A stretch of DNA of 64,000 bases from the NCBI RefSeq assembly GCF_054482595.1, contig NZ_CM137008.1. The stretch is one strand, 5' to 3'. The notes under the pieces are model-generated. The model was given only the letters and a program-made list of their open reading frames with translations, had not been told where the DNA came from and did not search any database. The translations under genes and the position numbers were made by a program. Position 1 is the stretch's first letter, and each line of letters opens with the position of its first letter. Of the stretch, positions 40,801 to 42,382 are shown in pieces.

Positions 40801-42382
40801 TGTTACGCCAGTTAAACTCGAAGGGGCGGTCCGGATTACCGATAGCGCGACATTAACTATCGGAAATGGCGTCGATACCACGCTTGCCGACCTGACGGCT
40901 GCCAGCCGGGGCAGTGTCTGGCTTAACAGCAATAATTCCTGTGCAGGTACCAGCAACTGCGAATATAGAGTAAACAGTTTGCTACTCAACGACGGTGATG
41001 TTTATTTATCAGCACAAACAGCAGCGCCTGCCACAACTAACGGTATCTACAATACGCTGACAACCAATGAACTTTCCGGTAGCGGTAATTTCTACCTGCA
41101 TACCAACGTTGCTGGCTCCCGGGGCGATCAACTGGTCGTCAACAACAACGCCACTGGTAATTTTAAAATCTTTGTTCAGGATACCGGCGTCAGCCCTCAG
41201 TCTGACGACGCGATGACGCTGGTGAAAACAGGGGGAGGGGATGCTTCGTTTACGCTGGGCAATACCGGCGGTTTCGTTGATCTTGGGACCTATGAGTATG
41301 TCCTGAAAAGTGACGGCAACAGCAACTGGAACCTGACCAATGATGTCAAACCCAACCCGGACCCCAACCCAAATCCAAAGCCAGACCCAAAACCCGATCC
41401 AAAGCCAGACCCAAATCCAAAACCAGACCCGACTCCCGATCCAACGCCGACACCCGTTCCGGAGAAACGCATTACGCCTTCTACCGCAGCCGTACTCAAT
41501 ATGGCAGCAACATTACCGTTGGTATTTGATGCTGAGCTAAACAGTATTCGCGAGCGGTTGAACATAATGAAAGCGAGTCCACACAACAATAATGTCTGGG
41601 GGGCAACGTATAACACCCGTAATAATGTCACCACCGATGCGGGGGCCGGGTTTGAGCAGACGCTGACCGGAATGACAGTGGGGATCGACAGCCGTAATGA
41701 TATTCCTGAGGGGATTGCCACGCTGGGCACTTTTATGGGTTATTCCCATTCACATATCGGTTTTGATCGTGGAGGACATGGCAGTGTGGGCAGTTATTCT
41801 CTGGGCGGCTATGCCAGTTGGGAACATGAAAGTGGTTTCTATCTGGACGGTGTCGTGAAGCTGAACCGTTTTGAAAGTAACGTAGTCGGTAAAATGAGCA
41901 GTGGTGGAGCCGCCAACGGCAGTTATCGCAGCAACGGGCTGGGCGGTCACATTGAAACCGGGATGCGATTTACCGATGGTAACTGGAACCTGACGCCGTA
42001 TGCCTCGTTAACGGGGTTCACCGCTGATAACCCCGAATATCATTTATCCAATGGCATGGAATCGAAATCAGTCGATACCCGCAGTATATATCGTGAACTG
42101 GGCGCAACGCTGAGTTACAACATGCGTCTGGGAAACGGTATGGAAATTGAGCCGTGGCTGAAGGCGGCTGTGCGCAAAGAATTTGTCGATGATAACCGGG
42201 TGAAGGTGAATAATGACGGTAATTTCGTCAATGATTTGTCGGGCAGACGTGGAATATACCAGGCAGGTATTAAAGCCTCATTCAGCAGTACGTTAAGCGG
42301 GCATCTTGGGGTGGGGTATAGCCATGGTGCCGGTGTGGAATCCCCGTGGAACGCGGTAGCTGGTGTGAACTGGTCGTTCTGA
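37808..42382 (+). CDS. ypjA: adhesin-like autotransporter (YpjA-type)
   Basis: about 1524 aa from the SD-supported ATG; signal peptide, repetitive Gly/Thr-rich passenger, Pro-rich PNPDPKP linker, C-terminal beta-barrel ending ...AVAGVNWSF. Confidence 0.8.
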   Translation: MNRTSPHYCRRSVLSLLISALIYAPPGMAAFTTNVIGVVNDETVDGVQKVDERGTTNNTHIINHGRQEVYGGISNSSIIETGGEQLVSIHADINGQANNTTINGGRQSIEYGGISTGTIIESGNQYVHKGGTSNDTTIKGGTSRIEGGTANGTIIDGGSQQVTTQGHVDGTTINKSGSQDVVQGSLATNTTINGGRQYIEQSTVETTTIKNGGEQRVYESRALDTTIEGGTQSLNSKSTAKNTQIYSGGTQIVDNTSSSDVIEVYSGGVLDVRGGTATNITQHDGAALKVTTYDLTVSGTNSEGAFSIHNKVADNVLLENGGHLEVSHSANKTIIKDKGTMSVLTNAKADATRIDNGGVMDVAGNATNTIINGGTQNINNYGIATGTNINSGTQNIKSGGKADTTIISSGSRQVVEKDGTAIGSNISAGGSLIVYTGGIAHGVNQETGSALVANTGAGTDIEGYNKLSHFTITGGEANYVVLENTGELTVVAKTSAKNTTIDAGGKLIVQKEAKTDSTRLNNGGVLEVQDGGEAKHVEQQSGGALIASTTSGTLIEGTNSYGDAFYIRNSEAKNVVLENAGSLTVVTGSRAVDTIINANGKMDVYGKDVGTVLNSAGTQTIYASATSDKANIKGGKQTVYGLATEANIESGEQIVDGGSTEKTHINGGTQTVQNYGKAINTDIVSGLQQIMANGTAEGSIINGGSQVVNEGGLAENSVLNDGGTLDVREKGSATGIQQSSQGALVATTRATRVTGTRADGVAFSIEQGAANNILLANGGVLTVESDTSSDKTQVNTGGREIVKTKATATGTTLTGGEQIVEGVANETTINDGGIQTVSANGEAIKTKINEGGTLTVNDNGKATDIVQNSGAALQTSTANGIEISGTHQYGTFSISGNLATNMLLENGGNLLVLAGTEARDSTVGKGGAMQNLGQDSATKVNSGGQYTLGRSKDEFQALARAEDLQVAGGTAIVYAGTLADASVSGATGSLSLMTPRGNVTPVKLEGAVRITDSATLTIGNGVDTTLADLTAASRGSVWLNSNNSCAGTSNCEYRVNSLLLNDGDVYLSAQTAAPATTNGIYNTLTTNELSGSGNFYLHTNVAGSRGDQLVVNNNATGNFKIFVQDTGVSPQSDDAMTLVKTGGGDASFTLGNTGGFVDLGTYEYVLKSDGNSNWNLTNDVKPNPDPNPNPKPDPKPDPKPDPNPKPDPTPDPTPTPVPEKRITPSTAAVLNMAATLPLVFDAELNSIRERLNIMKASPHNNNVWGATYNTRNNVTTDAGAGFEQTLTGMTVGIDSRNDIPEGIATLGTFMGYSHSHIGFDRGGHGSVGSYSLGGYASWEHESGFYLDGVVKLNRFESNVVGKMSSGGAANGSYRSNGLGGHIETGMRFTDGNWNLTPYASLTGFTADNPEYHLSNGMESKSVDTRSIYRELGATLSYNMRLGNGMEIEPWLKAAVRKEFVDDNRVKVNNDGNFVNDLSGRRGIYQAGIKASFSSTLSGHLGVGYSHGAGVESPWNAVAGVNWSF

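Follow-up and report, generated by a model that had tools for sequence, protein, structure and literature searches.

The window analysed here, a stretch of 64,000 nucleotides from contig NZ_CM137008.1 (assembly GCF_054482595.1), contains an intact ypjA/ehaD gene that encodes a classical (type Va) AIDA-I-type autotransporter adhesin with a repetitive tract of alternating proline residues in front of its beta-barrel (Table 1). A preliminary description, made from the sequence without database searches, had called the gene ypjA, and comparison with databases bears this out: megablast matches carry the annotation adhesin-like autotransporter YpjA/EhaD, with an identity of 100% in strain XH990. An 801-bp query was 98.1% identical to ypjA of MG1655 and 96.2% identical to the gene of the O157 strain Xuzhou21, both annotated YpjA/EhaD; hence, the gene is the orthologue of K-12 ypjA and O157 ehaD, with the same locus and near-identical sequence. 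The name rests on sequence identity, since no YpjA equivalog model scored above its cut-off in an NCBIfam search. Start and end of the gene are those of the mapped PGAP annotation of XH990; the mechanical open reading frame opens at a GTG (37679) and has a further in-frame ATG at 37799. An open reading frame for 146 aa on the minus strand (41290-41730) was rejected as a gene and is treated as a shadow ORF because it is unannotated in the identical genomes and matches only Gly-rich, low-complexity proteins of the keratin type, which the complement of CCN codons would be expected to produce. An Rfam search found no RNA family at the site of the tract.

Table 1. Features of ypjA/ehaD and its Pro-X tract in the window
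Feature	Position	Strand	Basis or remark
ypjA/ehaD coding sequence, intact, 1524 aa + stop	37808..42382	+	ORF list, translation, PGAP of XH990
Predicted signal peptide, 29 aa, MNRTSPHYCRRSVLSLLISALIYAPPGMA	37808..37894	+	Translation; length per PMC13101318
Pertactin-type C-terminal passenger domain (autochaperone/junction), ends at conserved ...SNWNL	40970..41338	+	Pfam PF03212
Pro-X tract, (Pro-X)18-Pro, 37 aa, 111 nt	41351-41461	+	Degenerate 6/12-bp tandem repeats
Length-variable part of the tract, units 1-13 (PN, PD, PK types)	41351..41428	+	Allele comparisons
Two exact 19-bp copies of ATCCAAAGCCAGACCCAAA, spaced 24 bp	41373-41391 and 41397-41415 (span 41373..41415)	+	
Thr-rich end of the tract, invariant in length, PTP(D/E)PTPTPVP	41429..41461	+	Allele comparisons
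Predicted alpha-helical linker, after conserved ITPSTAAVLN	41477..41575	+	AF2, model residues 170-202
12-strand outer-membrane beta-barrel (translocator)	41588..42376	+	Pfam PF03797, TIGR01414, AF2

The signal peptide of YpjA has been given as 29 amino acids (PMC13101318). The passenger that follows is beta-helical and made of AIDA-type repeats of ~19 amino acids (Pfam PF16168 in 12 stretches, 465 bits; TIGR04415 repeats, 246.8 bits), and it ends in a Pertactin-type C-terminal autochaperone region (E = 2.4e-45, 153.8 bits). The translocator matched PF03797 (E = 5.1e-45, 154.7 bits against a cut-off of 26) and TIGR01414 (325.7 bits, cut-off 16). It shares homology with the solved barrels of Vag8 and BrkA, and an AF2 model gives it 12 long strands between residues 207 and 469 (pLDDT of ~90). 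In this model (overall pLDDT of 84.6), beta-strands continue to residue 123, with the last strand at residues 119-123, followed by the tract as coil with a pLDDT below 50 (residues 130-163), a helix of 33 residues (170-202) and then the barrel. The Pfam domains show the same order: in the numbering of the protein searched, Pertactin spans residues 1056-1178 and the Autotransporter beta-domain residues 1264-1503, and the tract lies between them at 1183-1219. Both approaches agree with the earlier assignment of the repeats to the linker just before the beta-barrel and place them between the junction (autochaperone) region and the helix. From general autotransporter architecture, the helix is expected to lie inside the pore of the barrel (PMC3835316, PMC5767081); P170, S171, T172, V175, L176 and their neighbours are invariant or nearly so in an alignment of relatives. 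The low confidence of the AF2 model in the tract says only that the segment is non-globular, and the predicted coil is compatible with an extended conformation.

The tract translates as PNPDPNPNPKPDPKPDPKPDPNPKPDPTPDPTPTPVP, that is, 18 Pro-X dipeptides and a final proline. The peptide reported in the preliminary description matches the frame +1 translation of ORF 37679..42382 exactly, and its observation of Pro-rich repeats is confirmed; the position it gave, 41350-41460, was off by one base, the tract occupying 41351-41461. The 19 prolines alternate strictly with other residues (six D, four N, four K, three T and one V), and only 15 prolines are found in the remaining 1,490 residues of the protein (1.0%). 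At the protein-wide frequency of proline, 19 alternating prolines have a probability of ~10^-31; this value, together with the scarcity of proline elsewhere in the protein, excludes a chance origin of the alternation. At the DNA level the repeat is degenerate, because CCA, CCC and CCG are mixed, as are AAC and AAT, AAA and AAG, and GAC and GAT. Tandem Repeats Finder detected the array at periods of 6, 12, 18 and 42 (scores of 44-129). Self-match within the tract reached 0.60, 0.67, 0.69, 0.67 and 0.71 at lags of 6, 12, 18, 24 and 42, against a baseline of 0.26-0.32 in the 300 bp upstream, and was depleted at lags of 3 and 9. The longest exact repeat in the tract is the pair of 19-bp copies listed in Table 1, which is also the longest internal homology open to slippage in the allele of the window.

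It had been suggested that the length of the linker may vary between strains, and the number of repeats does differ among E. coli genomes. We found ypjA alleles with 17, 18, 19 and 27 units; the refuting outcome named in the preliminary description, one repeat number common to all homologues, is thus absent. Frequencies were estimated from two evenly spaced samples of 60 among the ~2,525 complete E. coli genomes with the gene, plus counts in bands of sequence identity. The two samples contained, respectively, 31 and 30 alleles of 18 units, 20 and 19 of 17 units, and 7 and 8 of 19 units, which corresponds to shares of ~50%, 33% and 13% (sampled from ~2,500 genomes), so that the three main alleles account for ~95% of the sampled genomes. 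A sequence at least 99% identical to the 19-unit allele of O157 is present in 267 genomes. All K-12 derivatives sampled have 18 units and all O157:H7 strains sampled have 19, while 27 units were seen in one O55:H7 strain, USDA5905. The alleles with 18 and 17 units differ by 6 bp, and those with 19 and 17 units by a duplication of 12 bp (CCCAAC-CCAAAT). The 27-unit allele is the product of a 48-bp expansion: O157:H7 Xuzhou21 (19 units) and USDA5905 have no differences in 440 flanking positions and no mismatches in 117 tract positions, and the sole difference between them is a 48-bp insertion of extra CCCAAC-CCAAAT and CCGAAG-CCAAAT copies.

In all 15 alleles read, the indels in the tract are multiples of 6 bp and keep the frame. 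All indels between the ypjA alleles seen here map to the first 13 units, and the Thr-rich end is common to every E. coli ypjA allele examined and to the paralogue described below. The alternation of proline is perfect in all full-length E. coli alleles of genomic origin that were examined, and nearly all nucleotide changes keep the type of dipeptide even though divergence is 9.5-10.5% inside the tract versus 1.1-2.5% in the flanks. The ypjA alleles are a discrete, lineage-tracking length polymorphism and not on/off phase variation.

A second gene, located between ymgJ and minE, is also named 'ypjA' by PGAP. A tract of 43 units in strain EC571, which could be taken for an extreme ypjA allele, belongs to this paralogue according to its ymgJ-minE genomic context. 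The paralogue tract is a purer (CCAAAT/CCGAAC)n repeat with 18-37 PN units; 60 records contained 16 length classes, every one a multiple of 6 bp. Alleles with 43, 37 and 38 total units share identical flanks (no differences in 440 positions), as do, separately, alleles with 24 and 35 units. The paralogue tract behaves as a true hexanucleotide VNTR with at least 16 alleles. Hence, the claim in the preliminary description that such repeats readily expand or contract applies to the purer, hypervariable paralogue but not to ypjA itself, where three alleles predominate and are fixed within lineages. An assembly artefact can be dismissed in both cases: each main allele of ypjA is present in hundreds of complete genomes that are independent of one another, and paralogue lengths are identical among related isolates (EC556/EC571/EC581; ETEC6333/ETEC6334). 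Our literature search found no paper on variation of the YpjA tract or on the ymgJ-minE paralogue.

The same junction is variable in related autotransporters. In 32 aligned relatives, between 7 and 103 residues separate the invariant L122 from the nearly invariant P170. YejO-type proteins, with 7-8 residues, do without the tract, so a long spacer is unnecessary for autotransporter biogenesis. Apart from these short YejO-type junctions, the junction consists of 15-55% proline in all aligned relatives, though with different partner residues, and unrelated Pro-rich sequences fill it in relatives from Citrobacter, Salmonella, Klebsiella and Erwinia. This pattern, read from the alignment, suggests that the physical character of the junction is maintained rather than its sequence.

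Why does the adhesin then have a proline tract of different lengths at this place? We hypothesize that the tract is an inter-domain spacer with an extended, polyproline-II (PPII)-like conformation whose length changes by repeat slippage, which is probably the best explanation overall. The tract would join the Pertactin-type autochaperone region, the last folded module of the passenger, to the helix entering the outer-membrane beta-barrel, and because it lies between these two elements it should, after secretion, sit at the cell surface immediately outside the pore. Proline at every second position precludes alpha and beta structure in the tract; the predicted conformation is an extended, fairly stiff PPII-like stalk, which would measure ~11 nm if fully extended (at ~0.31 nm per residue) and might hold the beta-helical adhesin off the barrel and the LPS layer. 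Whole units of 6 or 12 bp would be gained or lost through slippage during replication or through unequal exchange between adjacent copies, and since such changes always keep the frame, they would generate length variants and no on/off switch. Presumably, the rate is set by the purity of the repeat: the ypjA tract, with its degenerate codons, changes slowly, and the pure (CCAAAT)n tract of the paralogue rapidly. The preliminary description had invoked recombination; changes of whole units beside identical copies appear to fit replication slippage at least as well. The sequence data do not separate slippage from RecA-dependent exchange.

Some observations weigh on the other side. The ypjA gene is repeatedly disrupted by IS elements or frameshifts, which points to weak selection on the whole gene and counts against a spacer, as does the presence of a ypjA-type C-terminus in only about half of the genomes (~2,524 of 5,426). 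The differences of one or two dipeptides between the main alleles (about 0.6-1.2 nm) are, in addition, unlikely to have a functional effect. These facts would suit neutral, low-complexity filler of insertion-prone sequence that is tolerated at a structurally permissive junction, drifts in length by slippage and has no stalk or length-dependent function, a possibility that we place on the unlikely side. The wide range of junction lengths among relatives, with YejO-type proteins essentially lacking any filler, would also be explained in this way, as would a gene that is missing from about half of the genomes and often a pseudogene, and common alleles that are only one or two dipeptides apart. 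However, the perfect alternation and the kept dipeptide types in a tract that diverges more than its flanks speak against neutral filler, as do unrelated Pro-rich sequences at the same junction in four other genera. The spacer could conversely have a more specific role, as a length-tunable stalk that sets the reach of the adhesin past the LPS O-antigen or capsule, with slippage providing heritable variation, but we consider this unlikely. As a rough estimate, the paralogue might have a passenger ~10 nm shorter than that of YpjA but a stalk longer by about 4-15 nm; the total reach of the two proteins would then be similar, which hints at compensation between stalk and passenger length.

Other roles for the repeats are less plausible than those of a spacer or filler. 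Variation in repeat number could diversify a surface-exposed epitope, as proposed for R1 and R2 of pertactin, and the tract is both equivalent in position to R2 and predicted by the model to be exposed and unstructured. Moreover, pertactin alleles vary in the number of their proline-rich repeats, but the screen in the same study gave no antibodies engaging R1 or R2 (PMC8931430). Antigenic diversification is also difficult to reconcile with alleles that are fixed within the K-12 and O157:H7 lineages, where close relatives do not vary, and we judge it improbable. Docking of a host protein is very improbable. Proline-rich regions of some autotransporters are reported to bind host cytoskeletal proteins, and the Rickettsia autotransporter Sca2 is reported to recruit actin, which raises the idea that the tract is a ligand for SH3, WW or EVH1-type domains. 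However, no two of its prolines are adjacent and it lacks a PxxP- or PPxP-type core with hydrophobic or basic partner residues, its prolines alternating strictly with N, D, K and T, and its composition is freely swapped in relatives, up to the pure (PN)n of the paralogue. Hardly any credence is due to a phase-variation switch in which slippage frameshifts turn ypjA on and off. A simple-sequence repeat within an adhesin gene invites this reading, and one short assembly-derived protein (P0116) runs out of frame after ...PKPDPKPDPKP; however, the latter is a single record from automated assembly, and a locus with a 'frameshifted' flag and a 61-bp difference in span owes these to a change of 1 bp that does not lie in the tract. 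With a repeat unit of 6 bp, the reading frame is kept through the tract in 15 of 15 alleles and in 16 of 16 paralogue length classes.

The linker of this widespread, poorly studied E. coli adhesin exists as discrete length alleles that follow lineages, with 18 units in strains of the K-12 type, 19 in O157:H7 and 27 in a single O55:H7 strain, a finding of modest importance. The lengths of the ypjA and paralogue tracts could serve strain typing, and the repeats call for caution in short-read assembly and in the clustering of these proteins. The natural series of spacer lengths could be used in the engineering of surface display on YpjA-type scaffolds. If spacer length controls the exposure of the adhesin through O-antigen or capsule, repeat instability would be tied to the surface shielding of short adhesins, reportedly a known phenomenon, and if the stalk is tunable, the (PN)18-37 VNTR of the paralogue would be a contingency locus for adhesin exposure.

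A proline-rich linker of variable length, real as it is here, is nothing unusual in this class of proteins. In pertactin (Bordetella P.69), the R2 region is, like the YpjA tract, a proline-rich tandem repeat directly after the C-terminal Pertactin-type beta-helix region. The Pertactin-type segment of YpjA can be aligned with residues 430-534 of the solved P.69 passenger (1dab), and because this alignment extends to the residue directly before the tract, the two repeats occupy equivalent positions. The repeat unit of pertactin is (PQP)n, unlike the strict P-X alternation of YpjA. Pertactin, an established vaccine antigen, is cleaved from its barrel; we know of no cleavage or immunological role of YpjA. 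R2 is rich in proline, differs from allele to allele and is not resolved in the crystal structure (PMC8931430). In TibA, a proline-rich domain lies between junction and beta-domain (residues 627-677; PMC3835316); it occupies the same architectural slot and is similar in size (about 50 residues versus 37 in YpjA) but unrelated in sequence. The proline-rich linker of TonB forms, by experiment, an extended PPII rod, which spans a compartment of the cell envelope as a spacer (PMC5413942), and its (EP)n-(KP)n sequence and the YpjA tract both alternate proline with charged partners (K, D or E). However, TonB belongs to another family, works in the periplasm rather than on the cell surface and transduces force, so that the analogy is one of mechanism and not homology. 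Repeats of dipeptides of an acidic residue and proline are also found in a surface protein of trypanosomes, procyclin (PARP), with its EP/DP repeats. Its Pfam model PF05887 (Trypan_PARP), the sole model touching the tract, scored 33.2 bits, below its gathering cut-off of 100, a compositional match that does not make YpjA a member of the family. Among known systems, R2 of pertactin and the proline-rich domain of TibA come closest to the YpjA tract.

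The tract encodes the peptide PNPDPNPNPKPDPKPDPKPDPNPKPDPTPDPTPTPVP, exactly as quoted in the preliminary description, and consists of 18 Pro-X dipeptides (units) followed by one closing proline. Proline occupies all 19 alternate positions, and the rest of the protein has only 15 prolines in 1,490 residues (1.0%). Tandem Repeats Finder reported periods of 6, 12, 18 and 42, and the DNA self-identity at lags of 6, 12, 18, 24 and 42 is 0.60 to 0.71, compared with about 0.3 in neighbouring sequence. The repeat is genuine, yet a mixture of synonymous codons makes it degenerate in the DNA; the longest stretch repeated exactly within the tract measures 19 bp, with 24 bp from one copy to the next. 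No other feature occupies the site: an opposite-strand open reading frame (41290-41730) gave only Gly-rich compositional matches, and Rfam reported no RNA family at the site.

An 801-bp query from the region matched strain XH990 at 100% identity and K-12 MG1655 at 98.1%, and every match was annotated 'adhesin-like autotransporter YpjA/EhaD'. By sequence comparison, the host gene is E. coli ypjA/ehaD, which encodes a named, partly characterised adhesin associated with biofilm (PMC9289746). Pfam places 12 AIDA repeats, a Pertactin domain, the tract and the Autotransporter beta-domain in this order. Residues 430 to 534 of the solved pertactin passenger (1dab) align to a segment ending just before the tract, and the Vag8 and BrkA barrels align to the part after it. 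The last 470 residues were modelled with AlphaFold2 (mean pLDDT 84.6; input alignment of 32 sequences). The model has beta-strands as far as its residue 123, a coil of low confidence (pLDDT below 50) at residues 130 to 163, a 33-residue helix at 170 to 202 and then twelve barrel strands; the tract corresponds to residues 128 to 164. The tract therefore links the final folded module of the passenger to the helix leading into the barrel, which bears out its earlier placement just before the barrel.

The preliminary description had also proposed that the repeat number varies between strains. This is the case, with ypjA alleles of 17, 18, 19 and 27 units, and both its observation and its interpretation were essentially right. 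Seventeen units are present in two of the compared genomes, L002 and L005 (example tract PNPDPNPNPKPDPKPDPKPDPKPDPTPDPTPTPVP), and 18 in the window and in K-12, the latter with an N-to-I change. O157:H7 Xuzhou21 and HD12481 have 19 units, with one more CCCAAC-CCAAAT copy than the 17-unit alleles, and O55:H7 USDA5905 has 27, with four CCCAAC-CCAAAT copies and two additional CCGAAG-CCAAAT copies. The roughly 2,525 matching genomes were sampled twice independently, each time as 60 evenly spaced rows; 18 units were found in 31 and 30 rows, 17 in 20 and 19 rows, and 19 in 7 and 8 rows, giving estimated shares of about 50%, 33% and 13%, respectively; the remaining few percent were IS-truncated genes or genomes in which only a paralogue matched. 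A sequence at least 99% identical to the O157 allele is present in 267 genomes. Alleles are stable within lineages: all K-12 derivatives sampled have 18 units and all O157:H7 strains sampled have 19.

All length differences in ypjA are multiples of 6 bp and are confined to the N/K/D portion, 41351-41428, and the Thr-rich end of the tract, PTP(D/E)PTPTPVP, is constant among the alleles compared. The O157 and O55:H7 alleles have no differences in the flanks (0/440) and no mismatches in the tract (0/117), and are separated by one 48-bp insertion; thus, tract length change can outrun point mutation. The 18-unit class diverges from the 17- and 19-unit classes by 9.5 to 10.5% in the tract versus 1.1 to 2.5% in the flanks. 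This divergence between the window or K-12 and L002, L003 and L005 concerns the PK/PD block (41375-41428), and almost every change leaves the dipeptide type intact, a pattern suggesting that repeat units have been turned over or shuffled, not altered by ordinary point substitution. Independent IS insertions at or near the tract have truncated ypjA in other genomes (L008:560-640; L007:466-502; L009:152-1200). An IS1203 junction lies inside the tract, where the ypjA remnant starts ...NPTPEPTPTPVP, an IS1414 end lies about 36 bp upstream, and ISKpn26 is inserted in the barrel region.

Genome L004 (strain EC571), with 43 units, was considered as the most extreme ypjA allele and ruled out, as its locus lies between ymgJ and minE, beside ycgH. 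This paralogue of 1128 aa, likewise named ypjA by PGAP, is also present in L010 to L014 and L017, and K-12 retains only a 344-bp frameshifted barrel remnant there. With the L004 query we found it in about 159 genomes (38 at an identity of at least 99%, 121 at 95 to 99%), many of which also have ypjA proper. Its linker is a hexanucleotide VNTR, almost pure in sequence, in which (CCGAAC-CCAAAT)n precedes (CCAAAT)n. In the best 60 records, 16 different lengths of the matched span occur, from 637 to 751 bp and all a multiple of 6 bp apart; two records at 690 bp belong to the 691 class and have lost 1 bp outside the tract. The seven alleles that were read directly contain 18 to 37 PN units, always in frame, and their two sub-arrays vary independently. 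Flanks are identical among the alleles with 43, 37 and 38 units in total, and likewise between those with 24 and 35. This variation is not assembly noise, since related isolates have the same length.

The flanks of the ypjA tract (41111-41350, 41462-41661) differ from those in L004, L010 and L012 to L014 by an amount close to the spread among ypjA alleles (4-12/440), and the O157 ypjA allele and the paralogue have the ending PTPEPTPTPVP in common. The two loci may have undergone gene conversion. Some genomes have 3 to 4 separate places matching a 301-bp linker query, and two such places lie on plasmids; hence further paralogues with a ypjA-type linker and barrel exist. The E. coli proteins P0002 to P0004, with an E. 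albertii-like tract (PDPKPDPDPKPEPTPVP), may be one of these.

Purer repeats change faster: the paralogue tract is hypervariable and the degenerate ypjA tract is stable. Slipped-strand mispairing predicts this contrast and, on the allele patterns, is a likely mechanism; unequal recombination between repeat copies may also account for the length changes. A frameshift phase switch was rejected because tract length changes in frame, by multiples of 6 bp.

When the C-terminal 470 aa served as a protein query, relatives were recovered in E. albertii, Citrobacter, Salmonella, Klebsiella, Erwinia and others. From the invariant Leu of the W-x-L motif to the Pro of I-T-P-S-T, the junction in 32 aligned relatives measures 7 to 8 residues in YejO-type proteins (AENRAQIT) and P0048, 28 to 53 in most, and 74 to 103 in two distant relatives, one named as Erwinia. 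Except in the short YejO-type junctions it contains 15 to 55% proline, with partner residues that vary (PDPK in E. albertii; PEPT, PAPPEPT, PVDPVEP and others elsewhere). The junction is thus an insertion-tolerant hot spot. As these alignments indicate, autotransporter biogenesis can proceed without a long spacer, and long spacers, where present, retain their proline character.

From 21000 to about 49700, the window and XH990 (L015) are 100% identical; beyond that point they are unrelated, and XH990 has further inserted elements there (RloB and AAA ATPase, an integrase and a lambdoid prophage). The segment of the window from the ypjA stop codon to ssrA (42400-49945) resembles a P4-like satellite or defence island anchored at ssrA.

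Coordinates of the tract, its host gene and other annotated features (window positions unless stated)
Feature	Position	Strand	Remark
Pro-X tract	41351-41461	+	in frame of ORF 37679..42382
ypjA/ehaD CDS	37808-42382	+	intact, 1524 aa; PGAP CDS of XH990 mapped onto window
Paralogue in L010	6992-10378		tract 9281-9457 (L010 positions)
Five-tRNA gene cluster	1777-2636	+	Rfam
MicA sRNA	5550-5621	-	Rfam
naRNA4/CssrE	12219-12296	-	Rfam
tRNA	34593-34665	+	Rfam; tRNA-Ile in XH990 annotation; ~3 kb upstream of ypjA
AbaSI-family restriction endonuclease	42693-43574	-	name from identical strain XH990
Primase-like remnant and psu pseudogene	within 42400-49945		names from XH990
AAA ATPase	45670-47352		name from XH990
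HNH endonuclease	47358-48203		after AAA ATPase; name from XH990
Integrase	48206-49228	-	name from XH990
ssrA (tmRNA)	49583-49945	-	Rfam, 292 bits
160-aa ORF	50160-50642	-	directly follows ssrA

Why does the protein have this tract? We hypothesize that, after secretion, it would lie just outside the barrel pore as an extended, polyproline-II-like stalk, presumably keeping the beta-helical adhesin at a distance from membrane and LPS. The polyproline-II helix rises about 0.31 nm per residue, and the stalk would reach about 11 nm at full extension. Of the roles considered, this spacer is the most likely, and the tract is predicted to have no fold of its own (AlphaFold2 coil, pLDDT below 50). It is also plausible that the tract is neutral filler at a permissive junction, which would be compatible with a passive spacer role. 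Antigenic diversification is a possible role, and a motif for docking host domains is unlikely, as PxxP-type cores are absent from the tract.

Our literature search, run without most subscription journals, found no paper on variation of the YpjA tract or on the PN VNTR of the paralogue. Copy-number-variable, proline-rich linkers at this position are already established in autotransporters, and the proline-rich domain of TibA occupies the same architectural slot as the YpjA tract (PMC3835316). [quoted passage not shown]
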